DNA of 52,403 nt, filler included, from Candidatus Zhuqueibacterota bacterium (GCA_016783505.1; 4 parts of 4 records of this genome joined end to end with filler, not necessarily neighbours in it); one strand, 5' to 3'. Shown: positions 1 to 13,217, numbered from the whole stretch's first letter. Made by a program: numbers and translations. Notes: generated by a model not told the origin, from the letters alone.

Positions 1-251
1 TGGGCGATCTTAAGACAAAAAGGGAATCCATCCTTAAAATCCTTACCGGTCCTCCGGACTATAGAGCCGAATGGAATTTTCCCTTGAGAAGTCAATCCCC
101 TGCTTATATCAGGGCGGAACTCAGAACAGAATGTGACGGCAAAACTTACTTCTGCCTGACAAATCCTATCTGGGTCAATCTCCCTTAAGTAGTCTTTTAC
201 AGGTAGCCAACTTTGCTGCTTCAAGGTTACATATTGAAGCATTATGTAACA

Positions 252-282
252 AAAAACCAGCATCTTTTTAATGCTGGTTTTT
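252..282. terminator. Intrinsic (possibly bidirectional) terminator hairpin
   Basis: AAAAACCAGCAT / ATGCTGGTTTTT perfect 12-bp inverted repeat, 7-nt loop, downstream of the minus-strand 457..2113 operon. Confidence 0.6.
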
Positions 283-456
283 ACTTTTGTAGTTTTTAAA
301 TTTTTTAGTAATGTACCCCTAATATGTAAACGGAAAGAGTTTAGCTGTCGAAAAAAAGCGCGTGCTATTTTAAAGTAAGAATAATAATTAGTCAGCCAAA
401 AATAGAAACTACCTTTTTTCCATACTTACATTAAATGTTCCAATATTTCTATTTCG

Positions 457-1095
457 CTAATCCTCTAATATCTTATCTTCTTCTGGAGTTCTTCCATAAT
501 AGTACGAAATTTTATCTCGCAATTCAGATCTTGCTTGAATGGATAGTTGTAAGCATTTTGAATCCAATGGGGCGTCTTTTGGTGTTATTATCTTTTCGCA
601 ATTTATTTTATAGGTATTTCTAAAATCTATCATATAATAGTTTGTTTCCATATTATCCCCTCGTTGCCTATGTACAGTATATCTTGGGAACATACTATGT
701 TGTTCATAGATAAATACTTCAATGGAAGCGTAACCACGGCCTCCCATCAAACGTTTCTGTTTTTCTTCTGATGGAAATTTGTCCCAAACATAGGGGGAAA
801 CGGATTGTTGTGGTTCCATCTCTCGATTAATTCTTGTTAAATCTTCAGCAAAATAAGGATTATCAAAAAAGGAACTTAGCATTTCAATTAATGGAGATAG
901 AGAAATGACCTTTTTACCTATTGAGCAACAAGGAGAAAGTACAACACAGTAAGTTGGTAAATTAATATCAATTTTATAGTTCTTAAGTAAATTTGGTCCT
1001 TTAATATTTGGTGCTGTAAAAATAAATCCCTTCAAAACATCTCCAAATCTAAATGCCTTATCCATTTCCTCCTGATAGAACATATCCACACCCAT
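457..1095 (-). CDS. Hypothetical protein, third gene of TIGR04255-type module (GDV...CVVLSPCC pattern, possibly PemK/MazF-like fold)
   Basis: 212-aa ORF translationally coupled to 1095..1349; AT-rich. Confidence 0.65.
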   Translation of the reverse strand: MGVDMFYQEEMDKAFRFGDVLKGFIFTAPNIKGPNLLKNYKIDINLPTYCVVLSPCCSIGKKVISLSPLIEMLSSFFDNPYFAEDLTRINREMEPQQSVSPYVWDKFPSEEKQKRLMGGRGYASIEVFIYEQHSMFPRYTVHRQRGDNMETNYYMIDFRNTYKINCEKIITPKDAPLDSKCLQLSIQARSELRDKISYYYGRTPEEDKILED

Positions 1096-1349
1096 TATTC
1101 GCGATAGAATTCATCAACATCATGGTAACCTTTAGATGCTATTTTTTGTTTATATGATAAAAATTCCTTATTGACTCCAACTTCAATTATTCCAAGAAAC
1201 TCATTGTTTGGAGTCAATTTTATCTTAATTTGGTATTTATCAAACGGATAAACGATTATATTATAATCATCAGGCTCACCATGACTACCTGTGCCTTGAT
1301 TTTTTAGTTTATTGTAATCATAATCTATCTCTTGTAAATCCATTTTCAA
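1095..1349 (-). CDS. Small hypothetical protein
   Basis: 84-aa ORF overlapping both neighbours by 1-4 nt. Confidence 0.65.
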   Translation of the reverse strand: MKMDLQEIDYDYNKLKNQGTGSHGEPDDYNIIVYPFDKYQIKIKLTPNNEFLGIIEVGVNKEFLSYKQKIASKGYHDVDEFYRE

Positions 1350-2113
1350 CTCTCCCTTCTTTGCCGCATATATTGATAAACTGGTTCTTTGATTGTTTTT
1401 TCGTACGCTTCCAATATTATTATATGTAAGTCGTCTGTAACTGTTAGGTAGTCTTCTGAAGTAATATGTTCCGCAAAACCATCAAAATCAAGAATCAATT
1501 TATATTCATCCTCAATTTTTCGTAGTGATTCGATATAACGCAAATAATATTCACCTTTTTTAATCACGGTTTTAAAGTCCATCTCCTTTGCTTCAGCCAG
1601 ATTAAATCTATCAATAGGAAAAATTGAGTTATAGTATGTTCGGAATGTATCATTGTCTTTAGATGGAAGTGGACATTCATCGATATACCGTAAACCTATA
1701 CGTTTAATGATTGGTACGGATGTAACTTCAAAAAAGGAATCCAATACAAACTTTATGATATCTCTAAACTTATCGGCACCCCCTAAATCATAAGTTTTAT
1801 GATACTGTGAAGTTATATCCAGTGTGTCAGTTAATACGTTCAATTGAAAATTCTTATCAGATTTGAATTGCCATATTTTTTTACCCGCTTCCTTTTCTAA
1901 ATCGCCTGAAATGTTCTCAAGTTTTACTTCAGGCCCTATATCTGCAAATAAAAGCTGCCTCCGAAATAGAAGAGTTGATTGTGGGAATTCTTTCATTATC
2001 TTCAACTGCAAGTCGCCTATTATTTTGCTTTCCATATAGAACAGATTAGGAAATCTAATCTGAAATATCACTTGTTTTACCGTTGGGTTAGGAAATACCT
2101 CGTTAATACTCAT
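1346..2113 (-). CDS. TIGR04255-family protein
   Basis: N-terminal FPNPTVKQVIFQIRF, central IKRIGLRYID and C-terminal LILDFD motifs; AGGAGG RBS upstream. Confidence 0.75.
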   Translation of the reverse strand: MSINEVFPNPTVKQVIFQIRFPNLFYMESKIIGDLQLKIMKEFPQSTLLFRRQLLFADIGPEVKLENISGDLEKEAGKKIWQFKSDKNFQLNVLTDTLDITSQYHKTYDLGGADKFRDIIKFVLDSFFEVTSVPIIKRIGLRYIDECPLPSKDNDTFRTYYNSIFPIDRFNLAEAKEMDFKTVIKKGEYYLRYIESLRKIEDEYKLILDFDGFAEHITSEDYLTVTDDLHIIILEAYEKTIKEPVYQYMRQRRES

Positions 2114-2872
2114 AGTTTAAAACCTCCTTTTTTGTTTTTCATCTACTTGTTCTATACCTTTCATATCTTCATTGCAGATAATTCGCCAACATAAAAGCTT
2201 TCGCTCACGATTGCGAATAACTTAAAGTGACTAAATTGGGTGCTTTATCACTTACGATGGGAAATAATCCGAACCTGTTTAGTTTATCTCGATAATAAAA
2301 GGGTAGCTCAGCAAAAGCCTAACTATATAATATATTGCAACATGCGGTACAACAATCATTACCTTTTTGTTTTATAAAATGGATATGAAATTTCGTTTTA
2401 TAAGGTAAAGAATTAATTCAAAAATGTCAAGAAAAAAACGAAAGAAATCACCATGTAAAAACCGAAATTTTTTTATCAGACAGTTTAAAAAAGTCTGAAA
2501 GACTTTGTTGCTTCAACTATCACGATAATTCAATCTCCACAACTGCCGTTCCACCTTATTATCGCTGTAGTTGATAAGGAAGGATAAGTATATTCTTTTT
2601 ATCCGAAATTATCACTTCTACCTCGTCATTTTCCATATCATCAAAATAATCTACCGAATCGTGGGTGGACCAGAACTCTTGGATTTCCACCTCGGTTATA
2701 AAGGTTGGGATTTTTGCCATGATTATTTTTTCGGTGGTGACCGTTTAGTCGGGCGCCTGACCGATGCGATAGTTCTCCAACAGGTCCGGCAACGTCGTCC
2801 GCATATTCAGGCATGTCTGTAAGGTGTAATTTCGATTTTGAACCCGTCGTCCCGATGCCGACGTTGAAACCG

Positions 2873-3109
2873 TCAGGTTGCCATGCTTTGAGCCAAATCC
2901 CCAAAACCTCTTTTTAATAACTCTATTACCTCCTGATGCCTCTGTTCACCTTCCTTATGGATCTCCAGAAGTGTTGCATGCATCTCCAGATTTGTTGCAT
3001 GCATCTCTTTGATCAATTTCTTTGTTCCATTGAATACATATGCCACAACTCCTGACACTGATGCTACCGTTCCAAAGATAGTTATAAATGCAATGGTTAA
3101 TTCACTCAT
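2873..3109 (-). CDS. Small membrane-anchored coiled-coil protein
   Basis: 78 aa, one N-terminal hydrophobic helix, heptad repeat EMHATNL/EMHATLL; GGGAGG RBS. Confidence 0.6.
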   Translation of the reverse strand: MSELTIAFITIFGTVASVSGVVAYVFNGTKKLIKEMHATNLEMHATLLEIHKEGEQRHQEVIELLKRGFGDLAQSMAT

Positions 3110-3213
3110 TACTTCCTCCCTTTTTTATTTCGGCAATTATCCAATTAAAACACTATTTCAAAGCCACCTATTCTTCCATATCATCTACAACGGACCACTG
3201 ACAACGGGCATTA

Positions 3214-4734
3214 TTATCTTCTCGACTTAACCGGAGGTTTACTTTTTCCTGATGGCGGTTTCTTGTCCGTCTTGGGGGATGGTTTTTCAGCAGGCTTTTC
3301 CACCGGCTTCGGCGTGATCTTGCGCTTGATCTCCTCCCTTTTTGGCTTGGGCTTATACACTACCCCCTTGTTTTTAGCAGTGGATTTAATGGTCTCCCGC
3401 AGGATGAGGTCCAGGTTATTCTCTTTGGCAGTTCCCCGCTTTTTCGTCAAACCACTCAGTTTGTCCCGGGAGGAACGGACGTCGGTCTCCTCCACTACCC
3501 GGGTAGAAGGCTTGCTGGCGGGGTGTTTCTCCCCGGAAAAGGCCTTCGCCTTACTCAGAAAGAAATCATCGGAGGTCTTTTCGGCAACCCTATCTTCCTC
3601 AGCCGCAATGTAAACCCTATCACCCTCATAGTAGACGGGCTTCTCTTTCCCAGCATCGGTCAGGTAGACTTCACGGTAGGTCAGGAAGGCGAAGTTGCCG
3701 TTGGTCTTTCCCGAAACATACTTGTAAACATCCACACCCTCCTGGGAAATACCGCTGCAGGCGATGGTATGGATGCTGATGTGACGTTTGTTCGCCTCTT
3801 CCATCTCCTTACGATAATCATAATCGTCCCGGTAGTCCATATGGGGTGGGGCGTCCCCGATTAAAAAGGCGATCTTGCTCACCCCAGGCCTGAGATCCCA
3901 ATCCATAGACCAGATGGCCTCATGGAGGGCCTCGTTAACACTTTCCGGGTCATCCCCCCCACCACTGGCAGCGATCCCGTTCAGGTGGTTGATAAAAGCC
4001 TGAACATCCTCAGTTAGGCGAAATTTTTTAACGATATAAGGGTCGCCACGGTCCTTGTAGTCCACCATGCCGTAGCGGACCACCGGGGGCGGGATTCCCT
4101 GGCGGATGTCGTCCACCATCGTCCGAATGCGCTCCTTCACGGCGCTGATCTCGTCCCCCATGGAGCCGGTGGAATCGAGGATGAACACCACATCTATGTG
4201 GGGGGATTGGGGTGAAGTCCCGGCTTCCGTAATCTCCACCCCCATAAGGTCGGCGATCAGGCGGGTGGTCAGTTGATCGACCATATCAAAGATCCCCTCA
4301 ATCTTGCTCCCAAAGACCTTCTCAGCATGAATAATGGACCCGCTTTTTACCTCCAGAATGTGGGCATCTAACCGGACCTTCTTACCCCCGGTGGTTAGAC
4401 TGCCCAAGATCAACAGATCAGCGCCGATCATCTCCCCTACCGAAAGGGCCTGATTGTCCTCAATCAGCCCCGTCTGTCCCAGCTCCAGTTCCTCCAGGGC
4501 TTTCCCCAGCCTCTCCCGCTCCACCACGTTGATCCCCGATACACCGGAGATGTCGGTGATGATCATCTCGGCGATCCCTTCCCCTAAATAGTCCAGCTCA
4601 TCGGTAGCATGATTAATCTTGAAATTGAGAACCGCAACATTAGTCCCCCCCGCAAAGCCGATATTCAGGCGCAAGAGGAATAGCAGAGTCAGGGGAATAA
4701 CCGCCCAAAATCTTGGTTTCATTTTGGACTCCAA
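3214..4734 (-). CDS. Secreted CsgG/HfaB-like domain + VWA domain protein
   Basis: Signal peptide; VVERERL..LEEL..GQTGLI (CsgG/FlgO-like); MIDAS DSTGSM, GGDDPE and DAPPH VWA motifs; Lys/Pro-rich tail. Confidence 0.8.
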   Translation of the reverse strand: MESKMKPRFWAVIPLTLLFLLRLNIGFAGGTNVAVLNFKINHATDELDYLGEGIAEMIITDISGVSGINVVERERLGKALEELELGQTGLIEDNQALSVGEMIGADLLILGSLTTGGKKVRLDAHILEVKSGSIIHAEKVFGSKIEGIFDMVDQLTTRLIADLMGVEITEAGTSPQSPHIDVVFILDSTGSMGDEISAVKERIRTMVDDIRQGIPPPVVRYGMVDYKDRGDPYIVKKFRLTEDVQAFINHLNGIAASGGGDDPESVNEALHEAIWSMDWDLRPGVSKIAFLIGDAPPHMDYRDDYDYRKEMEEANKRHISIHTIACSGISQEGVDVYKYVSGKTNGNFAFLTYREVYLTDAGKEKPVYYEGDRVYIAAEEDRVAEKTSDDFFLSKAKAFSGEKHPASKPSTRVVEETDVRSSRDKLSGLTKKRGTAKENNLDLILRETIKSTAKNKGVVYKPKPKREEIKRKITPKPVEKPAEKPSPKTDKKPPSGKSKPPVKSRR

Positions 4735-4805
4735 TTTTATTCTTTTATCCTATTTGCAACACTCTAATTTAATAAAATAATCGGAAATGTCAAGAGGGGT
4801 TTAAA

Positions 4806-4850
4806 TAAAATCCTCATTTTATCTAATTCACCATCATTCAGGGACCTAAC
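4806..4850 (-). repeat. Diverged copy of the 3' end of gene 10301..11335 (attR-like junction)
   Basis: 38/45 nt identical to 10301..10345; translates VRSLNDGELDKMRI vs VRPLDDDKLDKMRI. Confidence 0.85.
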
Positions 4851-4970
4851 GGACTTGCGCTTCAGCAGCGAGTCTCCGATACATCTGTTCTAATCCTTTA
4901 TCTCGTTTACCAATTGTCTTCATTGCTGGAACGGGCCGTCATTCCCGTCTGCTGCAGGCGCTTGTTATGC
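4844..4970 (-). mobile_element. Integron attC site 4 (last in array)
   Basis: Minus strand GCATAAC-AAGCGCCTGCAGCAGAC ... TCGCTGCTGAAGCGCAAGTCC-GTTAGGT; complementary arms with AAC/GTT cores, directly after the stop of 4977..5966. Confidence 0.85.
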
Positions 4971-4976
4971 ATAATA

Positions 4977-5966
4977 TTATTTAAGAATTTCTATTAGAGA
5001 TTCAGCGGATGATAAGGCTTTGTTGGCTTGTCCTTCCCCAATATCAATTAAGTTCTGATGAACCGCCTTGTTTCTCAGTGTAATCGATTCTAGCATATTA
5101 TCGTAGACCATTTTATGCGTAGAATTCTCCTCATCAAGTAACTGAATTACTTCCACAGACATCAGGTAATGCAGATCGACCTTACTGGATAGTTCATTAA
5201 TTTTAGTCTTTGATACACCGCGAGTTTCCCAGGCATTCTTCACAGAATTGATGATAACAGGTTCAATGGCTGTGATTACGTCAATTAGACAATTACGGTA
5301 CTGTCCAAGTTCATACCAATATCTGGCAGAATTCATCGAAAGTCGTGTTGAGTTCAAATACTTATCATCAGCAAGTATGAGACGAAAATCGTTATGTGCT
5401 TTCAAGGGCAATGCATACTTCGCTTTTCTCATATCCAAATTCATATTTAGTCTGAACTTTTTTTCGTCGATGTTAGCCAGCCTCAGTACGCTTCTAAAGG
5501 GGAGATCTCTGAGTGTAGGCTTATAATATTCTCCAGAACAAATTCGATATTTCTCAATGAATTCATTTATCACACGCTTTATTCGTTTATAGAGTCTTTT
5601 CTCCTTTTTCTCCTGTTCATCTTTATCATCAAGAAATAATATTTCGTTCGAGGACCAAAAAATCTCTAGAATCGTTTTTCTAAAATGATCAGTATCATCA
5701 CGAATATACTCCACATTTCTCCCAATAAAATTCTGAAGAAAATCGGAATGATCTCCTGAAAATGACGGAGTTAGGAGACCCAATGATGTTGGCTTACGAT
5801 TTGGATCGTCTTCGTAATAATCAATATTGATGCTACCCTCTGCGTTTTGTGTCCAATAATTATATGTGACGATAGAATATTCCTTACCGTCTACTCTTAT
5901 GCGGTATTCATCATTTTTTAAACGAAGAGAAAAAGGAAGATTAGTTGTCAGTGAATATCTGATCAT
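4977..5966 (-). CDS. Gene cassette: protein with C-terminal HEPN-like (ApeA-like) domain
   Basis: 329 aa; RNKAVH = RxxxxH motif, preceded by TAIE; AT-rich; flanked by attC sites. Confidence 0.65.
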   Translation of the reverse strand: MIRYSLTTNLPFSLRLKNDEYRIRVDGKEYSIVTYNYWTQNAEGSINIDYYEDDPNRKPTSLGLLTPSFSGDHSDFLQNFIGRNVEYIRDDTDHFRKTILEIFWSSNEILFLDDKDEQEKKEKRLYKRIKRVINEFIEKYRICSGEYYKPTLRDLPFRSVLRLANIDEKKFRLNMNLDMRKAKYALPLKAHNDFRLILADDKYLNSTRLSMNSARYWYELGQYRNCLIDVITAIEPVIINSVKNAWETRGVSKTKINELSSKVDLHYLMSVEVIQLLDEENSTHKMVYDNMLESITLRNKAVHQNLIDIGEGQANKALSSAESLIEILK

Positions 5967-5984
5967 CTGATTAAATCCTTTTAT

Positions 5985-6113
5985 GCATAATAACGCCCGG
6001 CATCACCAGTGGGCAGGGGAAACGGGACTTAGTCAATGGTAATTAAATACCAAACTTGGAAAAAGTCTTTAAACGCCACAACCCTGCCCATCTGGTGCAT
6101 GGCGTTGTTATGC
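5985..6113 (-). mobile_element. Integron attC site 3
   Basis: Minus strand GCATAAC-AACGCCATGCACCAGATGGGCAGGG ... CCCTGCCCACTGGTGATGCCGGGC-GTTA(TTATGC). Confidence 0.85.
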
Positions 6114-6150
6114 CATCTTAATATCCCATATCGCAGAAACGTTTATAGAA

Positions 6151-7428
6151 TCACAGTATTGGCACATAGTCAGATTCAGCGTCAGTAATGAGTTGAAAAA
6201 CATGTTGCAATGCAACATCACTCTTAGAAGGATTCTCAAAAAGAAGACTGAGCAATAAGCTTGCACTGCTGGTCGCTAAACCCCCAATAAGGGAGGATAT
6301 AGGTTCTCCGGTAGTTGCGAAAGTTCCAATGACCCCACCACCAAAACTTAGGCCAGCTGTTTTCACTTTTGACCCCAATGAGTGCTTTGATATCCTTTCC
6401 TTAAGATGGAAGGAGAGTTCTGGTATTTCTTTTTTTGCGATGCGCGAAAAAGAGTTTGGACTTCCAATGTCCACAGTATCCAATATCTTTTCTAACTCAG
6501 ACCGCCACATGAAGAATGTATCGTTATCTTTATGTAAATCAGTTACTTCTCTCGCAGATAAATCGACTATGGAGGGTAAACGACAAGCTGACAGAACAAG
6601 ATCTTGCCGGACACCAAATTTGAAAGGCTTGAATGCACGTCCTGCTACCAATCCTTTTGCGACATACAATGCTGCACCAAATAGACCTTGAAGCACAATT
6701 TCGTAACCCTGTTGATCACAATAGAGCAGTCTTGCATTAAAAAAACGCCTATTAAGATTATCCTTACCCCTTGCAATATCAAGAAGGCCACAAAATGCTT
6801 TAGCCTGTTCAACGGGTAGATTTTCGAGAACAATCTTCTCTGCTTCATCAAGTACGTGTAAGTGATTATCGTCAAGTTCACAGAGAGCGTCACATTCAGG
6901 AGTACGAGTTATTGGGACGCTATAGCCGCTCGGAAATGTCTCAATAAGGCCGGTATTTAACAAAGGACGCATTCGAGCCCAAAAACGAAGAGCATGTTTA
7001 AGAACGGTGTCACCCAATCTTCTTGAGGCTTGTGCGGAAGTAAGTTTCAAGGTGTTCGCCCATGCTGGAGCTTCATAAACTGATGATGTTAAAGGTTCAG
7101 AAACCGCTACCGCATCATAATACAAAAGATACTTAAATATAGCGTTACCGACTTCATGTAATGGCTTGTAGTAGTTTTGACCGCCTGCAAATTCATGAGA
7201 AAGCCAAGCACTCATATCACGTGTATTAAACATTTCAAGAAATGCTACTCTGCGATCATTATCTGAAGAAGTACTCTCATATTGTTCACCACTGCTTAAA
7301 ATCAGGTCTCGAATATCGTCTATTTGGTTTGTGGAGACCTTATCAAATGTAATGTTTGGCGAGATTTTCTGATCGACTATTCTCTCTATCTCGCACAATT
7401 GCTTTTCCCACCAACATTTTTGTTTCAT
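6151..7428 (-). CDS. Gene cassette: hypothetical protein with two C-terminal hydrophobic/Gly-rich helices
   Basis: 425-aa ORF between attC sites; cassette ends GTTATGCC / GGCATAAC are complementary. Confidence 0.7.
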   Translation of the reverse strand: MKQKCWWEKQLCEIERIVDQKISPNITFDKVSTNQIDDIRDLILSSGEQYESTSSDNDRRVAFLEMFNTRDMSAWLSHEFAGGQNYYKPLHEVGNAIFKYLLYYDAVAVSEPLTSSVYEAPAWANTLKLTSAQASRRLGDTVLKHALRFWARMRPLLNTGLIETFPSGYSVPITRTPECDALCELDDNHLHVLDEAEKIVLENLPVEQAKAFCGLLDIARGKDNLNRRFFNARLLYCDQQGYEIVLQGLFGAALYVAKGLVAGRAFKPFKFGVRQDLVLSACRLPSIVDLSAREVTDLHKDNDTFFMWRSELEKILDTVDIGSPNSFSRIAKKEIPELSFHLKERISKHSLGSKVKTAGLSFGGGVIGTFATTGEPISSLIGGLATSSASLLLSLLFENPSKSDVALQHVFQLITDAESDYVPIL

Positions 7429-7445
7429 TGATATTAATCCTTAAG

Positions 7446-7521
7446 GCATAACGTGCCGCATAACCGGCTGGTAAAGTAGCGCAGCGGATTTACCAGTCCG
7501 AGTTAATGCGGTTGGTTAGGT
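7446..7521 (-). mobile_element. Integron attC site 2
   Basis: Minus strand ACCTAAC-CAACCGCATTAACTCGGACTGGTAAA ... TTTACCAGCCGGTTATGCGGCAC-GTTATGC; TAA stop of the upstream gene lies in the R'' box. Confidence 0.9.
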
Positions 7522-8649
7522 TTTGAGATCGTTTATCCATTGATTAAGAGAAATGTAATCCCTCAATTGCATTTGGTGTTTCACTTCTTGTTGGAATTCT
7601 TTAGCGCCTCTAGTAAAGCTTGAAGTTGTAGCTATGATGCCAGCAGTAGCTTTTTCTAATTGGACAATGCCATATAAAGATCTTACAACATCAACTTGGA
7701 CCTTGTTCGTCTTTGCGTACCTTTTACATTCCACAAGGAAAAGAAATCGACCAATCTCATCAGAACGAGCAGCGTATATATCAACACCACCATCTTTGGC
7801 TGGAGGTGTGAGGGTGATCTCATAACCAAGCTTATTAAGGAGTTCAGCCACCAGTCGTTCAAAATCCCTTGGGCTCAATGTGTACATTAGCTCTGGATTT
7901 TTCGTTACTTCACGGTAAAGCCTCTCCTCGAGATACTCAGACACCTCTACAATTGGTTTTGGCAGGGCAATAGATGGATCATATGGAACACCATCAGGGC
8001 CTATAATCCCTGGCTCTCTAAAAGGTTGAAGGTCTCTTATTAGCTCATTCCATGAAAGCAGACCTTCTCGAATCGTCGATGCACCCAACGATAGAAATAA
8101 AGGATGCCCTTTTACGTAATTGAAATATTTTTTTGCGGAATCTTCATTAATCAAGGCCAACCTTTTTCTCAAGAGCTCGTCCCATTCTGTATGAGAAAAA
8201 CCCTCAAGACGAACATTTACACTACCTAGCATTTGAACAGGGAGCTGAGTTTGAGAAACAATTATACAGTTTAAATTTATGTTAGCTGAAAGTTCATGAT
8301 TTAGTTGGTCAAATGCTTTTGGCTTTAGAAAGTGGGCCTCTTCTAAAACAAGCAAAGAGCGTTTTGTAGTGTCGAGTTTCCTTGTTTTGGGTAGATCATC
8401 TAAGACCGCACCCCAATGGGCATATGTAACCTCGATGCCCCCTGGAAAATCAGTTTCGTGCATACGCCAAAATTGATGAACAAGCGAGGTTTTGCCAATA
8501 CCAACTCTTCCGGTCACAATCACAACCTGAATGGTATCACTGAGCAGAGATTTTTCAAGGATACCAAGCTCTTTTGCCCTACCCACAAAAGTACTTTCAC
8601 TGGCTGGCACTGCCTCTGTTGCTGTAAGGTGTAAACGTTCAAATTGCAT
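7516..8649 (-). CDS. Gene cassette: P-loop (AAA/NB-ARC-like) ATPase fused to Mrr-like restriction endonuclease
   Basis: FVGR..EL, Walker A GRVGIGKT, LLVLEEAH; C-terminal FERLVAELL..GY, DGGVD, VECKRY, TTSSFT (Mrr_cat pattern). Confidence 0.85.
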   Translation of the reverse strand: MQFERLHLTATEAVPASESTFVGRAKELGILEKSLLSDTIQVVIVTGRVGIGKTSLVHQFWRMHETDFPGGIEVTYAHWGAVLDDLPKTRKLDTTKRSLLVLEEAHFLKPKAFDQLNHELSANINLNCIIVSQTQLPVQMLGSVNVRLEGFSHTEWDELLRKRLALINEDSAKKYFNYVKGHPLFLSLGASTIREGLLSWNELIRDLQPFREPGIIGPDGVPYDPSIALPKPIVEVSEYLEERLYREVTKNPELMYTLSPRDFERLVAELLNKLGYEITLTPPAKDGGVDIYAARSDEIGRFLFLVECKRYAKTNKVQVDVVRSLYGIVQLEKATAGIIATTSSFTRGAKEFQQEVKHQMQLRDYISLNQWINDLKT

Positions 8650-8659
8650 TGGTTTTCAA

Positions 8660-8789
8660 ACCTAACGATTGCATAACCTGCGCGAAAGATTAAGGTCACG
8701 GAGCGTTGCACAACCACAGAGCTTCGAAGAATGCACCGAGCTCTGGAATCACGTTACAGCTTTCGCGTCAGGTTGATGCGATGTTAGGT
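8660..8789 (-). mobile_element. Integron attC site 1
   Basis: Minus strand ACCTAAC-ATCGCATCAACCTGACGCGAAAG ... CTTTCGCGCAGGTTATGCAATC-GTTAGGT. Confidence 0.9.
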
Positions 8790-8844
8790 ACTCGTTATAG
8801 GATGCATTTTCTGAAAATTAATCCCAGCTTCATTCAATAAAGTA

Positions 8845-9846
8845 TCACAACGCAACCATTTTAAAATCTACAATAGCTTTTTTGAAAGGTTCAATTAATT
8901 CGAATGGCAATGTTTTGTATGCCTGTCGATTGACCCAGAAAATGGGTTCTGCGCTCCATTTTTCTGCAAATAAAATCGCTGAGAGATTTTCTAACAATTG
9001 ATGGTTAGTTTCATCCTCCAGACAATTATTGACTACGTGTTGGAAATCGGAATCACTTCGAGCGTCATGCGTACTGTACAAAACAACTACGTTGGTTTCA
9101 CCCTCTATAAGTTGTTCAGTCTTGGTCTTCAATTTTGTCCAAATCTCCTTAAAGCCATAGGGAATCTCTGAAAGTACAGTCCGGTTTTGTTTGAAGAACA
9201 AGTCGTTGTACAATTCCTCATCTGTTCGCAATCGTGTAAATTCTATATAGATATATTCGTTTTCAAAGTCTAGTTGATAATCAGGCCCTTTAGTTTTCAC
9301 CGTCGGATAAAAAGTTAGTTTTCGAATCCCTTCGATTTGTCTCATAAGCCCAACCGCAAACTTCCCTTCAAAAAATAAATCCTCGAATTGTAAAGAATCA
9401 CCAACATTAGCACGAAGCTTCTTTTGAAAAAGGTGTAGGTTGTTTACTTCCAATCCTTCGAGCTGCTCGGTTAATTGTCTCAGGCCATGTTCATGAGCAA
9501 TGACGAAAATTGCTTTCTGTCTAAGATTTGCTGGTAAATCACAAAATTTACTTAAGAGTTTGATATTGGATTTAATCTCTGTTAGACTTGAAACGAATTC
9601 TTTATAATTTGATTTGGATTGAAGTTCATCGATCAATATTTCCTGTTTTTGAGAATCACATAAAAGAGAGCCTAGCCATATCTCTGGTTTTTCTGAATCA
9701 AAGTCAGTCAAGATTGAACGGACATCCGAAAAATTTCGGTACAATTGTAAATTGTTAAGAAGGATAAATAGGTTGCGAAGTTCATCTCCCTTTGATTTTT
9801 TGATTGATTTCTTGAATCTTCCAAATGTTACATTATGGTGATCCAT
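8845..9846 (-). CDS. Gene cassette: hypothetical protein, possible PD-(D/E)xK nuclease fold
   Basis: 333 aa; FE...GPDY...YIEFTRL pattern; AAGGAG RBS; first cassette of array. Confidence 0.65.
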   Translation of the reverse strand: MDHHNVTFGRFKKSIKKSKGDELRNLFILLNNLQLYRNFSDVRSILTDFDSEKPEIWLGSLLCDSQKQEILIDELQSKSNYKEFVSSLTEIKSNIKLLSKFCDLPANLRQKAIFVIAHEHGLRQLTEQLEGLEVNNLHLFQKKLRANVGDSLQFEDLFFEGKFAVGLMRQIEGIRKLTFYPTVKTKGPDYQLDFENEYIYIEFTRLRTDEELYNDLFFKQNRTVLSEIPYGFKEIWTKLKTKTEQLIEGETNVVVLYSTHDARSDSDFQHVVNNCLEDETNHQLLENLSAILFAEKWSAEPIFWVNRQAYKTLPFELIEPFKKAIVDFKMVAL

Positions 9847-9886
9847 TCAAATCTATTCTCCTTAAAGAATCAATCCATAAGTTATC

Positions 9887-9960
9887 GTACCTAACCTAGG
9901 TTTCGGTGTACTAATACAAAACGCAAACACGGCAAATCTGGCCGTATAAACTCAGATAAG
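9887..9960 (-). mobile_element. attI-like site (5' boundary of first cassette)
   Basis: GTTAGGTAC at 9895..9887 exactly complements the GTACCTAAC R'' box of this cassette's attC; the preceding CCGAAACCTAG is not an attC arm. Confidence 0.55.
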
Positions 9961-10300
9961 AATTACCAGAAATGAGCAATTAATTAACTATAAAATAAAT
10001 AGCTAAGCTAAGGCGGTCTCTACACCTTCTCAAGTTTATACGGCTTAAAAATGGCATATAAATCCCCAAGATTTTCTTTCGAAATCAATTATTAATCAGG
10101 CTGATTCTATTTATTATACGTCAAAATGAGGCATGTAAACCTAAGAGAAATGTTTGTGATAATATAATTCAAGATATATAAAAAAATTGAATAGACTATA
10201 ATTTCACATTGTAAAGGCTTTAATTGTCCCGCAGAGGCCGGAGCCCCTACGTGACAGTAAAATTAGTTTGCTTGATCTACTTTCTTATATCAAGAAAAAT

Positions 10301-11335
10301 TTAAATCCTCATTTTGTCTAATTTATCATCATCAAGGGGCCTAACGTTAAATCGTTCACTCCCTTCCGGGCCATCCCCTTTTACCAAAATTGAGGACTGG
10401 TCCTTATCTTTACTGTAGCGGGCGGCGATAGAGGCTGCTGTTTTCTTTAATTCGTCATTGACGGGGCCAAAAAGCAATACCAGTCCCCCTGGATGTTCGA
10501 CTGTCTGAAAAGCCCAACAGTTGTCCTGATACCTTTCCAAGAACAGGTTTTCCTTTTCATTCCGACCCACTATCACCTTTGCCGCCGGGCTCAGCCGAAA
10601 ATGTCGTCCCACAGCCAAAAGATAAACCTCCTCCTGGGTAAGCACTTTTGCCTCCCGGTGATCCAGAAGGTCCCGGAACCGGGCGGCGTAGTGCTCATCG
10701 GTGAGGAAGCAGCACCCTCCCGCCGGCTGGGGGAAATCGGTAAGGCCAAATTTTTGGGCCAGTTCGATCTGTCTCTTACGGGATCGTCCCTGTATGTCGT
10801 AGAGTCCATCTGGGTCAATCCAGCCTTCCTTCTCCGGAATCGTAGGCCTAAGCAATTTAGCCGACAGGGGCCGCAACAGATATCCCCTAAGACCGGCTTC
10901 CCTTTCGATGGTGTTCATCACGTCCCGGCGCTGTGACATGGGCCGCTGGCCCAGCACCTCACCGGTAAAGACAAAGGAGGCTCCCTCAAGCTCCATTCGC
11001 CTTTTCGCCTCCCGTAACATGTGAATGCGGCAGTCAATGCAGGGGTTCATCTGCGAGCCGTAGCCGTGCCGGGGATGGGTCACCATCTTCAGGTAGTCTT
11101 CTGAGATGTCCACGATGTCCACTTCAACGCCCAGGTCCCTTCCGGCCCTCAAGGCCTCGTGTCGAACGGGCTGGTCCTTTTGTCCGGCAAAAACCTTCTT
11201 CAACCCGACGATACAGAAACCGGTATAGAAGTGGACACCTTTAACATCAACACCCTGATTGAGGAGGACCCTGGCCGCCAGGGTGCTGTCAAGACCCCCG
11301 GACAAAAGACCGATGGCTTTGATTTTTTTAGCCAA
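10301..11335 (-). CDS. PP-loop tRNA thiouridylase-like protein (ThiI/MnmA-related, DUF814-type C-terminus)
   Basis: SGGLDS PP-loop, NPCIDC, TGEVLGQRPMSQ, PAGGC, GRHFRL..IVGRN motifs; TTG start. Confidence 0.85.
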   Translation of the reverse strand: MAKKIKAIGLLSGGLDSTLAARVLLNQGVDVKGVHFYTGFCIVGLKKVFAGQKDQPVRHEALRAGRDLGVEVDIVDISEDYLKMVTHPRHGYGSQMNPCIDCRIHMLREAKRRMELEGASFVFTGEVLGQRPMSQRRDVMNTIEREAGLRGYLLRPLSAKLLRPTIPEKEGWIDPDGLYDIQGRSRKRQIELAQKFGLTDFPQPAGGCCFLTDEHYAARFRDLLDHREAKVLTQEEVYLLAVGRHFRLSPAAKVIVGRNEKENLFLERYQDNCWAFQTVEHPGGLVLLFGPVNDELKKTAASIAARYSKDKDQSSILVKGDGPEGSERFNVRPLDDDKLDKMRI

Positions 11336-12086
11336 TTATCAATTCAAACGAAAAAGGCGAATTTTGTGACCCGGCCACGATGGTATGTTCCCCGGGGTCC
11401 AAAATGACCTTGGTATCCGGAAGATTAGCCCCGATTGGCTGCCCATCAACGATGGTCCCCAGGCGGCTCCCCCGATCGAGGATGAGGACCTGCCCGGCTG
11501 TCTGGTTGATGGAAAAATGGTTGCGGGAGACATTGAAGGGAGCCCCGTCTTCGAGATGAAGATCATTGTATGATAGCACATCGGTGTACAAATCGTGACT
11601 CTCCCGTCCGATCATAAAGGGAAATTTTGTAATCACCATTTTTTGCCCCTTCAGGGCCCTCTTGGCCTCTTCGGAGAGACCAGCCAACACGACTCGGATT
11701 GGCTTTTCAACCGGTGCTTCTTCAGGAACCGGCTCCGCACGACTGACTACCAGCTCATTCATCTGGCGTAGCCGTTCGAACAGAACCTTCATAATGGGCA
11801 TCAGCACTGCGGGGTCTTTACTAAAGCATTCATTAAATTTTTCCCGGTCAAACACATCAAGTTCTACGTCCTCCAGAGCGGTGACAGTGGCCGAGCGGGG
11901 ACGGTCTTCAAACAGCCCCTGATCCCCGAAGATCCCGTCCTTACCTATTTCCGCCAGAACCACCTTCTTCCCATCCTTTCGCTTGGACACCTCAACCCGC
12001 CCCGAACGGATAATATACGCCGAGGTCCCGTAGGATTCCTCCTCAATGATCACATCCCCTTTTTTGAATCGAAGGACATCAATCAT
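11328..12086 (-). CDS. Cyclic-nucleotide-binding domain + FHA domain protein
   Basis: Start reassigned to ATG 12086 (AAGGAG RBS); FGDQGL..RPRSATV cNMP motif; IGR...VSRNH...GSRLGT FHA motif. Confidence 0.85.
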   Translation of the reverse strand: MIDVLRFKKGDVIIEEESYGTSAYIIRSGRVEVSKRKDGKKVVLAEIGKDGIFGDQGLFEDRPRSATVTALEDVELDVFDREKFNECFSKDPAVLMPIMKVLFERLRQMNELVVSRAEPVPEEAPVEKPIRVVLAGLSEEAKRALKGQKMVITKFPFMIGRESHDLYTDVLSYNDLHLEDGAPFNVSRNHFSINQTAGQVLILDRGSRLGTIVDGQPIGANLPDTKVILDPGEHTIVAGSQNSPFSFELIIG

Positions 12087-12108
12087 GGCATTCTCCTTTC
12101 CATAAGGT

Positions 12109-12834
12109 TCAATCGTATTCCTTCCATTTAATGGTATAGAAATAGTTTGATTCACCGGGATATTTATTTTGGGAGATAAAGCATTTAAAATCATCATATT
12201 CATTCGGCCGAATGCAGGTATCGGTGATGACACCGCTCCGGAAGGTATGCCGCGTCCCGTCAACGTAAGCCGAGTCAATCCCCACCGTTTCAGCTTTAGC
12301 ATTCAGAAAGTTGAATTTAATCTGCACGAAATCAGCCCGCCTGGATCCCTTGTTTTTTATCTTACCCACCAGCACCCTCTTCCCCGTATCAGGATCCCTC
12401 CTCGCCAGAATCTTGCCCAGCAGGATGCACTTGGCGGCCCTCTTTACCCGGTCCACCTCCTTGATCTGAATCCACTTCAGGTTCAGAATACCGATGTCCG
12501 TTTCCACGATTACGCTGCGCTTGTCCCGGCGCAAAATGTCCCCGAATACCATTGTCCCGTTGACCAAGGTTATCCGGTCAATTTCCTCTGGGGACTCGAT
12601 AATGGGACCCGTTGACGCCGGCCTGGGGATAAGCCTTCCTAAGCCCTTCCGCTCGGACGCTTTTAAGGCCTCAATTTCCGATTTTAATTGCTCAATTTCC
12701 CGGGTGAGGGAATCTAATTTTGAAGAAACAAGGGAGTCAGAATCCCCCTGGCACCAGCCCCATTCGGGAAATGATAAGACAAAAATTCCCAGGGAAAGCA
12801 TGAAATAACAGCTTAGCCATCTTTTCATACCCAT
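12109..12834 (-). CDS. Secreted hypothetical protein (coiled coil, FxLYD-like C-terminal domain)
   Basis: Signal peptide; GKIKNKG...FVQIKFNF pattern. Confidence 0.7.
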   Translation of the reverse strand: MGMKRWLSCYFMLSLGIFVLSFPEWGWCQGDSDSLVSSKLDSLTREIEQLKSEIEALKASERKGLGRLIPRPASTGPIIESPEEIDRITLVNGTMVFGDILRRDKRSVIVETDIGILNLKWIQIKEVDRVKRAAKCILLGKILARRDPDTGKRVLVGKIKNKGSRRADFVQIKFNFLNAKAETVGIDSAYVDGTRHTFRSGVITDTCIRPNEYDDFKCFISQNKYPGESNYFYTIKWKEYD

Positions 12835-12861
12835 TTTTCGTTCCTCAATGTCTTGACAATT

Positions 12862-13217
12862 CTACTCTGTTTTTCGGCTCATCGCCTCTTGAACCCCGGC
12901 CACCGTCTGCCTCAGGGCCTCCAGGCCCCGATCTCCCCCAATTTTAATTACGCTCTCCTCGACCACGTTGTAGAAAATGTAATTCCTAGGATCCTTCATT
13001 AACTCCAGAAGTCCCTGTAGGGCCACCTCGTTACCGATCATTCCCAGGGTTTCCATGGCCACCAGCCTCACGGACAGATCCTTACGTTCATCCTGGGCCA
13101 GTTCTACCAGAACCGGCACTGCCCGGGGGTCCCCCATTTTCTCGAGGGCCTCAATGATCCGCTGCTCGAGGAGCAAGAATTCCTCGCGGGTGTGGATTAA
13201 GGCCTCCATCAGGATCA
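12862..13217 (-). CDS. HEAT-repeat protein (5' truncated by contig end)
   Basis: ALEKMGDPRAVPVL, TLGMIGNEVAL repeats. Confidence 0.75.

Follow-up and report, generated by a model that had tools for sequence, protein, structure and literature searches.

The window analysed here is a stretch of 52,403 nucleotides (52.4 kb) from Candidatus Zhuqueibacterota bacterium (GCA_016783505.1), in which four contigs of a metagenome-assembled genome (MAG) are joined by runs of N. The locus described below lies wholly in the first of them, contig C77 (positions 1 to 13217), and all its features are encoded on the minus strand. There, a tRNA-thiolase-like gene of the PP-loop type (ThiI / tRNA_Me_trans-like) is followed by an array of integron cassettes, and a second copy of the end of the same gene stands beyond the last cassette. 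An earlier reading of this DNA, hereafter the original prediction, held that an integron platform had apparently been inserted into, and had restored, the 3' end of the gene. The MAG comprises 89 contigs and 2.51 Mb with a GC content of 46%, and is 59.9% complete and 1.8% contaminated. All 40 nearest genomes in GTDB are kin only at the level of the same domain, with a best thiolase match of 55% among them; therefore, no close reference genome is available.

The thiolase-like gene and its duplicated tail

The gene spans positions 10301 to 11335 and is an intact open reading frame (ORF) of 344 amino acids. Besides the ThiI and tRNA_Me_trans matches, a search with Pfam placed a C-terminal NFACT-R_2 domain at residues 243 to 341 (profile positions 1 to 102 of 104, E 1e-24). 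The last 14 codons and the stop that the gene now uses, here called tail B (VRPLDDDKLDKMRI, then the stop), lie at 10301 to 10345 and would form the first 45 nucleotides (nt) of the inserted module. The second copy, tail A (VRSLNDGELDKMRI), lies at 4806 to 4850; it is a relic of the same 14-codon gene end, displaced and stripped of the stop, and it begins at the G/TT of the fourth attC site of the array.

A recount gave 38 identical positions out of 45 between the two tails, exactly as had been predicted, and two further comparisons agreed. The top direct repeat in the region from 3000 to 12500 paired 4803 to 4851 with 10298 to 10346 (49 nt, 84%), and blastn of the contig against the whole MAG paired 4808 to 4851 with 10303 to 10346 (86.4% over 44 nt, E 2.5e-6), with no third copy of the repeat found by blastn in the MAG. 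The repeat is in frame and is limited to the coding tail, at the end of a conserved protein. As also predicted, the copies encode alternative C termini: tail B ends in a stop codon, while tail A translates as VRSLNDGELDKMRIL and continues without a stop for 13 more codons.

Both copies begin with GTTAGG on the minus strand, at 10345 to 10340 in the gene and at 4850 to 4845 in the distal copy, where this word is the 3' box of the attC4 hairpin; this too had been correctly seen. The homology between the tails starts within 1 nt of GTTAGG at both ends, the GTT itself occupies 10345 to 10343 and 4850 to 4848, and tail A is joined to the G of attC4. In the gene, the word belongs to a proposed crossover site at 10339 to 10352, in which an RYYYAAC-like word (ATTTAAC) stands back to back with a GTTRRRY word (GTTAGGC) and exchange would fall between G10345 and T10344. 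Direct repeats from the gene's 3' end thus sit at both borders of the block, and since the block brings a substitute tail, the gene keeps a full-length NFACT-R_2 domain. The GC content is 0.32 to 0.47 between the tail copies versus 0.49 to 0.58 in the flanking genes, in line with the prediction of GC-richer, host-like genes on both sides. Downstream of tail B, a spacer of 110 nt (10191 to 10300) carries a small hairpin just after the stop codon; it is unique to this locus, with no second copy in the MAG.

Four cassettes without an integrase

Four minus-strand ORFs of 333, 377, 425, and 329 amino acids follow, each succeeded by an attC-type hairpin with AAC...GTT feet. Cassette 1 (8666 to 9894) holds the ORF at 9846 to 8845 and attC1 at 8791 to 8660; it starts with TTAGGTAC, and the 5' box of its attC site is GTACCTAAC. 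Cassette 2 (7452 to 8665) contains the ORF at 8649 to 7516 and attC2 at 7521 to 7446, with TTAGGT as its start and ACCTAAC as 5' box. Cassette 3 (5991 to 7451), with the ORF at 7428 to 6151 and attC3 at 6114 to 5985, starts with TTATGCC and has the 5' box GGCATAAC, and cassette 4 (4850 to 5990), with the ORF at 5966 to 4977 and attC4 at 4970 to 4844, starts with TTATGCAT and has the 5' box ATGCATAAC. Every one of the four cassettes therefore opens with bases complementary to its own attC 5' box, as exchange between G and TT leaves them; the first cassette junction falls between G9895 and T9894.

The DNA fold energies of attC1 to attC4 on the gene strand are -26.8, -16.3, -29.3, and -15.8 kcal/mol, respectively. 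An attC scan recovered attC1 to attC3 at a threshold of -14 or below, and attC4 only at a relaxed threshold, with -12.1. Applied genome-wide, the scan was not specific, with 80 matches against 58 in a reversed-sequence control, and the C77 cluster and single strong matches are what stand out. Two bases, C and A, are in excess on the 5' arm of attC1 (G and T when the opposite strand is read), and their orientation fits that of canonical attC sites. In the 3' box of attC3 (GTTATTATGC, 5985 to 5995), the triplet in register with cassette 4 is ATT instead of GTT, which may lock cassettes 3 and 4 together. attC2 (7446 to 7519) has a near copy on contig C53 (86% over 74 nt) and is shared by many further contigs of the sequencing runs X1, X2, and X5 (18 to 20 contigs with variants at 7472 and 7477); these copies make up a family of alike attC sites in the communities sampled.

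The product of cassette 2 joins an AAA-type ATPase N terminus to an Mrr_cat nuclease (Pfam Mrr_cat, E 6.5e-29), and the nuclease part has weak PADLOC matches to PDC-S02 and mREase_IV. No Pfam, NCBIfam, or PADLOC family was found for cassettes 1, 3, and 4, and cassettes 1 and 3 have matches only to unnamed Atlas clusters. ORF, Pfam, and TIGR02249 searches detected no integrase ORF on the 13.2-kb contig, and neither an integrase nor a remnant of one lies within 4851 to 10300. The prediction of four cassettes with no integrase between the repeats was therefore borne out. The array has the folded attC sites of a complete integron but no intI beside it; its four attC sites, within 4844 to 8791 on a contig free of integrase, place it among the clusters of attC sites lacking an integron-integrase (CALIN).

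A landing pad present in several copies

Between the spacer and cassette 1 lies an attI-like landing-pad element (9889 to 10190) that ends with CCGAAACCTAG G/TTAGG and in which a conserved 12-bp stem is accompanied by two small hairpins and by one resembling a terminator. The original prediction had described some 400 bp of non-coding attI-like DNA here. This stretch divides into the 110-nt spacer and an element of about 300 nt that is not unique but occurs in multiple copies.

At least six copies of the pad were found in the MAG by blastn and an nhmmer profile, with copies at C69 6924 to 7224, C69 9224 to 9530, C37 22750 to 23031, both ends of C11, and, in part, C73 7155 to 7231. All of them end with AAACCTAG G/TTAG and diverge beyond this point. 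They share the 12-bp stem around the two small hairpins, with compensatory changes in 3 of the 31 predicted pairs, as well as the terminator-like hairpin, which in the window lies at 9947 to 9927. Each copy stands downstream of a co-oriented gene, namely those for a saccharopine dehydrogenase, an ABC-3 permease, a protein with a type IX secretion system (T9SS) tail, a DUF3307 protein, and the thiolase-like protein.

A junction was scored when the first ten bases after the G had a counterpart, differing by no more than one edit, in a 5' box lying within 2.5 kb at the foot of a GTT-ending hairpin. By this measure, a cassette abuts the G/TT of the pad at five of six copies (C77, C37, C69b, C73, and C11a), a different cassette at each, while only 2 of 30 mismatched control pairings of junction and downstream DNA were matched. 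The sixth copy, C69a, reads CCTAG GTTAGGC ACT, has no partner, and looks unoccupied. The word TTAGGC also begins the sequence after the last attC at C37 and C11a, which fits what is expected if the pad's own right half is pushed to the end of an array. The pattern suggests that the pad behaves as an attI site, with cassettes entering at one fixed G/TT; there are several such pads, none beside an integrase, and binding of an integrase to them is putative. The core in the window, AAAC-CTAG-G/TTAGG, is likewise multi-copy and not beside an intI gene.

Rfam holds no family for the pad or for the rest of the locus at gathering level, with three matches at chance level. The pad pattern occurs in one stretch among the GTDB species genomes, in a Clostridiales MAG, and in none of the viral contigs searched. 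No sigma-70 promoter was found in the pad on the cassette strand, and no relic of an integrase tail upstream of the pad copies (all tblastn E values at least 1). Two further observations concern the pad. In higher-depth contigs of X1 (89) and X2 (84), 9951 is joined to 10114 with 162 nt skipped, and this shorter joint is a pad variant from elsewhere in the X1 and X2 samples. In addition, a stretch of 111 nt is the same at either end of C11 and belongs to the pad in both places.

Related arrangements on C69 and C37

On C69 (5400 to 9900, minus strand), the end of the T9SS gene with its sorting tail, a terminator, a promoter-like TTGACT-17-TATTAT, and the pad occur two to three times, the repeats being 82% identical over 181 nt and 84% over 377 nt. 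They enclose a cassette, complete with its attC, and a further attC-like hairpin; the second (middle) tail, which follows this attC-like hairpin, is a relic with an internal stop. C69 is therefore built in the same way as C77, in a less clean form. The copies on C69 diverge by 16 to 18%, about as much as the C77 tails (16%), a hint of a single diverged donor lineage. On C37 (22750 to 24760), only one cassette comes after the pad; it is low in GC, encodes a protein of 419 amino acids (esterase plus TPR), and has a 103-nt attC, and a tRNA-SeC gene lies about 220 nt after the cassette.

Integrases in the genome

The search of the MAG for intI, which the original prediction had put forward as a check, yielded two remnants, one of them heading a cassette array of its own, and no intact gene in the assembled 60%. 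The first, at C44 2866 to 3193, fuses model positions 1 to 55 of an integron-integrase to positions 264 to 304, with about 200 codons deleted, and lies directly after an HtrA-like protease gene. Further along C44, a possible cassette junction is seen at 3306, with 5'-box-like words near 5249 and 5305.

The second remnant, on C82 (640 to 1900 of its locus, minus strand), consists of the last 139 residues of an IntI/Xer-like protein whose N-terminal half is missing. In canonical IntI proteins, the KGxKxR region and the HxLRHSFAT box are set apart by an additional domain. In the C82 fragment this domain is absent, and about 61 residues separate the two motifs, a Xer-like spacing; the fragment scores 93.9 bits on TIGR02249 and 98.6 on XerA. 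Co-oriented after it stands a 23-nt palindrome, ATATCCGAAC-CTA-GTTCGGATAT (CCGAAC-CTA-GTTCGG), resembling the pad end GTACACCGAAAC-CTAG-GTTAGG. The following cassette start, GTTGTGTGCC, is matched exactly by a 5' box (GGCACACAAC) 550 nt on, and at least 5 kb of DNA at 29 to 39% GC comes next. C82 is a degenerate 'reverse' integron, and since its remnant, core site, and cassette are co-oriented, the lineage has, or had, integrons of this kind. The dispersed pads show the same layout, with gene, core site, and cassettes all running one way. Other recombinases in the MAG are Xer-like proteins on C36 and C87 and two phage-type integrases on C59.

Reads and contigs of other samples

In the source run, X1, the depth is even (47 to 52) over the flanks and the block. 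The X1 unitigs span 4823 to 9928 and 10273 to 13217 and break at 4823 to 4852, 9928 to 9944, and 10273 to 10302, which indicates branching at those points. Run X2, from an independent study, covers 6081 to 9928 with 0 differences, so that cassettes 1 to 3 are identical in it, and has next to nothing of 4126 to 6080, which contains cassette 4, tail A, and the start of the downstream gene for a VWA-type protein. In run X5, one contig matches 4562 to 4849 at 96.5% and then continues for 1168 nt unlike the window, the break falling exactly at the G/TT of tail A, and a second contig spans 10219 to 10499 at 89%; X5 therefore carries both borders, in separate contigs. A contig of run X6 matches 10141 to 10346 before its last 29 nt diverge, and in a low-depth contig of X1 the match to the pad starts only at 9890. 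The loss of similarity exactly at 4849/4850 and 10346 fits both junctions being exchange points. Parts of the window left uncovered in X2, X5, and X6, as well as the unitig breaks, were not taken as evidence of absence. Among the joints listed, none skips 4851 to 10345.

Relatives and homologous loci

Near relatives of the gene are known as proteins only. P0124, from a 46.7-kb contig, is 99% identical to the thiolase-like protein and ends with the tail VRPLDDDELDKMRI. P0001, taken as the closest relative for the comparison of differences along the protein, is 96% identical, ends with VIPLNDDELDKMRI, and comes from a 51.8-kb contig on which a 241-amino-acid neighbor protein is also identical to that of the window. 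Compared with P0001, the protein of the window has 4 differences in residues 1 to 307, none of them between 230 and 307, and 11 in residues 308 to 344; among 27 distant homologues, variability in the C-terminal part is raised only about 1.5-fold (0.62 versus 0.42). The tract opens on the upstream side of the GTT, and close strains have therefore undergone one or more homologous exchanges with a boundary upstream of the proposed crossover. Protein-cluster look-ups were uninformative on the presence of the island in relatives, as a fragment of the VWA protein that is surely in X2 is also not on record.

No empty site was found among the 40 GTDB genomes or in a metagenome scan (80 loci at 41 to 52% identity, none close). 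For a survey of homologous loci, 99 were collected (19 from the genome collection and 80 from metagenomes); the gene runs off the contig in 4 of them. Among the other 95, the best ungapped downstream match of the gene's last 45 nt was 28/45, and six loci have one attC-like match each, with none having two.

Proposed mechanism

The anatomy of the locus, its cassette junctions, the multi-copy pad with its cassettes, and the strain breakpoints lead us to infer a recombinase, a circle, a donor, and an order of events. We propose, with a probability of roughly 0.55 and as the simplest way to explain both borders, that a module made up of a substitute tail, the spacer, the pad, and the cassettes entered the gene through IntI-type recombination at its internal G/TT. 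An integron-type tyrosine recombinase, acting in trans, would have exchanged strands at the G/TT in codon 331 (GTT, Val) and inserted a module of 5,495 nt (window 4850 to 10344) that reads, on the minus strand, 14 substitute codons plus stop, the 110-nt spacer, the pad of about 300 nt, and four cassettes ending with attC4. The original tail would have been pushed 5.5 kb downstream, where it would still be found, in decay, directly attached to the G of attC4, and since the module carries a tail, the gene would stay whole.

The module with its tail would have had to form in a related genome in which the gene preceded the spacer and the pad. In this donor, the G/TT of the orthologous gene tail would have recombined with a downstream site, either attC4 or the pad core, to give a circle beginning with the tail, and the circle would have re-entered at the same word of a diverged gene copy. 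If the partner was attC4, the whole module could have moved in one step as one circle. If the partner was the pad core, the tail, spacer, and pad would have come first and the cassettes later, at the new junction of pad and tail A. Both routes yield the observed sequence. The strains differ in their cassettes beside constant borders, which fits the two-step route or later turnover. The original prediction of a 'super-cassette' circle, mobilized by an IntI in trans with the coding sequence as its site, is plausible in kind, though unproven in detail, and holds for the integron-type array, for the GTTAGG at both ends of the block, and for the carried tail; it needs amending in that a build in two steps is possible and in that homologous exchange occurred upstream.

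We also consider, tentatively and with some doubt, that the landing pads are themselves mobile, each traveling with the last codons and 3' flank of its upstream gene as a self-restoring 'platform cassette' that would land by G/TT exchange in the end of an orthologous or paralogous gene without killing it.

Several results weigh against recombination of this type at the gene. The site at the distal joint, attC4, is the weakest hairpin of the four, with a 4-nt asymmetry beside its 3' box GTTAGGT. On C69, the homology of the relic starts 22 to 27 nt past the attC-like 3' box and not at G/TT, and no tail duplication was found at C37. No intact intI was found, as none of the 11 MAG matches reaches the 265-bit cutoff of TIGR02249 in a MAG that is 59.9% complete. 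Neither an empty site, nor a circle junction, nor a donor locus turned up. Tail A and tail B each differ from the P0001 tail at 3 of 14 residues, and with both equally distant neither is marked out as native. Of the 11 differences from P0001 in residues 308 to 344, 8 lie upstream of the GTT codon, so homologous exchange has also shaped the locus, and this tract counts against a history of site-specific exchange alone. Finally, none of the 95 homologous loci of other lineages, surveyed as the original prediction had suggested, has a tail relic or an array, so that the arrangement is no general behavior of this gene family.

Homologous exchange could in principle account for more than the upstream tract. 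Homologous or homology-facilitated illegitimate recombination may have imported a diverged relative's gene end with spacer, pad, and cassettes, anchored in the thiolase-like gene, and joined the far end at the 7-nt microhomology CGTTAGG, leaving the recipient's tail as tail A. We consider this unlikely. It would account for the P0001 tract, which begins at residue 308 and so before the GTT, as is expected of a homologous crossover, for the CGTTAGG common to both tails, and for the missing intact intI, and natural transformation is reported to drive cassette shuffling in chromosomal integrons (PMC12614218). Against it, a joint was possible at very many 7-mers in 5.5 kb, yet it lies exactly on the last attC box, and contigs of other samples break at the same two points; moreover, the P0001 tract may reflect a later exchange of the finished island with its flank, which is compatible with IntI-type insertion. 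An in situ duplication, in which unequal exchange between sister chromosomes paired the gene's G/TT with the pad core or an attC and was followed by partial deletion and divergence, would use the same sites, and the tandem-like repeat of tail, spacer, and pad around cassettes on C69 has the form that such an event would leave. It is nevertheless improbable: the copies differ by 16% on C77 and 16 to 18% on C69, yet cassettes 1 to 3 are identical in two studies and all four ORFs are intact, and the lack of a spacer or pad after tail A on C77 calls for an extra precise deletion.

Islands that insert at gene 3' ends are usually recognized by imperfect direct repeats of the end concerned. Since the repeats here have this form and C59 encodes two phage-type integrases, the block could be an ordinary genomic island of another tyrosine recombinase that restored the 3' end from its attP, lost its integrase, and carried the cassettes as cargo. 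This is quite improbable, given that there is no integrase or remnant in 4851 to 10300, that the distal repeat boundary coincides with the attC4 box, and that the block opens with 450 nt closing in a pad that serves cassettes at four more loci. A chimeric contig or an accidental repeat is very improbable. In its favor are the X1 unitig breaks listed above and the lack of any unitig that bridges 4850 with 31 letters on each side; on the other side stand the even X1 depth and the long unitigs to the right and left (10273 to 13217 and 4823 to 9928), the presence in X5 of both sides, with tail A on one contig and tail B on another, and a repeat with an E value of 2.5e-6 against the whole MAG, in frame with the end of a conserved protein.

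Flanking DNA

The distal flank of the block is a gene for a VWA/CsgG-like lipoprotein (3214 to 4722, minus strand; 502 amino acids from the ATG at 4722), assigned with Pfam, and an identical protein has already been recorded. A collection of 5.8 billion proteins yielded no homologue of it exceeding 51% identity, in either length class. Run X2 lacks about the first 200 codons of the gene, and this flank may be variable DNA in its own right. The best sigma-70-like promoter match of the region (TTGACA-16-TAAATT, 4766 to 4793, minus strand) immediately follows tail A and precedes the VWA gene; it is a match to the consensus only, at 10 of 12 positions.

Downstream of the VWA gene, an attC-like hairpin (2775 to 2883, minus strand) follows an ORF of 78 amino acids, and part of this region (2747 to 2788) recurs on C66 and C47, with the depth doubling there in the runs. 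The low-GC left third of C77 may hold more cassette-like DNA. At the left end of the contig, positions 1 to 139 are identical to the last 139 nt of C64, so that the two are probably neighbors in the assembly graph.

Comparison with known systems

The nearest experimental counterpart is the recombination of attC with attG sites. In the text available from Loot et al. (bioRxiv 10.1101/2022.09.11.507474), IntI inserts cassettes at genomic GWT sites and also excises 'at other nearby genomic sites', the step needed for a circle with host DNA; the one-step route through attC4 requires these two activities. In both that system and the one proposed here, a circle enters at G-W-T outside attI, the last attC is joined to the remainder of the target, and excision at a nearby site can take or delete host DNA. 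As far as the available text describes it, the C77 locus differs in being a natural case, from an uncultured lineage, with four cassettes, an attI-like pad, and a 45-nt substitute tail, in which a coding target is kept, and in its imperfect target repeat of 45 to 49 nt, which simple insertion does not give. At C77, we thus found the G-W-T word at the proposed crossover and the joint between attC and target, but not the unduplicated target and the insert starting with a cassette that such an insertion would leave.

CALIN are defined, in the passage quoted by Loot et al. (bioRxiv 10.1101/2022.09.11.507474), as clusters of attC sites lacking an integron-integrase. The array on C77 resembles them in having four consecutive attC sites and no neighboring integrase, and differs in that a conserved multi-copy element with a cassette junction heads the array and two copies of a gene tail bracket it. 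Cury et al. 2016 (PMC4889954) is reportedly the source associated with CALIN.

Certain genomic islands, phages, and integrative and conjugative elements insert in the 3' ends of tRNA or protein genes and restore the end from their attP. The C77 block shares with them the gene 3' end as target, the carried replacement, and the imperfect direct repeats at its borders. Unlike them, it has no integrase of its own at a border or elsewhere; its crossover word and distal partner are of integron type (the GTTRRRY of an attC), and its cargo consists of cassettes. 'Reverse' integrons, such as that of Treponema denticola, have intI in the same orientation as the cassettes. The C82 remnant, its core site, and its cassettes are co-oriented in this manner, as are the dispersed gene-pad-cassette copies, with the difference that a housekeeping gene, not intI, stands upstream at the latter.

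Fragments of attI also occur in mobilizable units within clinical integron arrays and are recombined by IntI, according to the part of the report available (PMC12901181). There, as here, attI sequence is part of a mobilizable unit inside arrays. The units described in that part are fragments of attI1 and attI2 bounding resistance cassettes in class 1 and 2 integrons, whereas the present element is a whole pad of about 300 nt at no fewer than five chromosomal loci, each downstream of a co-oriented gene. In the excerpts of the literature on integrons, attG, CALIN, and attI that were available, no dispersed multi-copy attI-like pad or tail-carrying module was found, which is no proof of its absence.

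The dispersed landing pad is the main new fact. The usual picture of an integron is one integrase, one attI, and one array, and arrays lacking an integrase are usually regarded as debris, or as cassettes scattered over GWT sites at random. The locus on C77 suggests a more organized route, in which a conserved pad recurs behind ordinary genes at several points of the chromosome and serves different cassettes; in at least one case, the pad appears to have entered a coding sequence while carrying a replacement for the part that it displaced. If true, this would explain how integrase-less arrays arise and stay harmless, and it would mean that integron recombination picks up and re-delivers host DNA in nature, as the attG experiments predicted. 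It would also provide a searchable signature, a repeat of a gene tail that starts at GTTRRRY next to an attC. Should the pads themselves prove mobile, many dispersed cassette platforms would be served by one integrase in trans, merging the behavior of integrons with that of gene-targeting islands.

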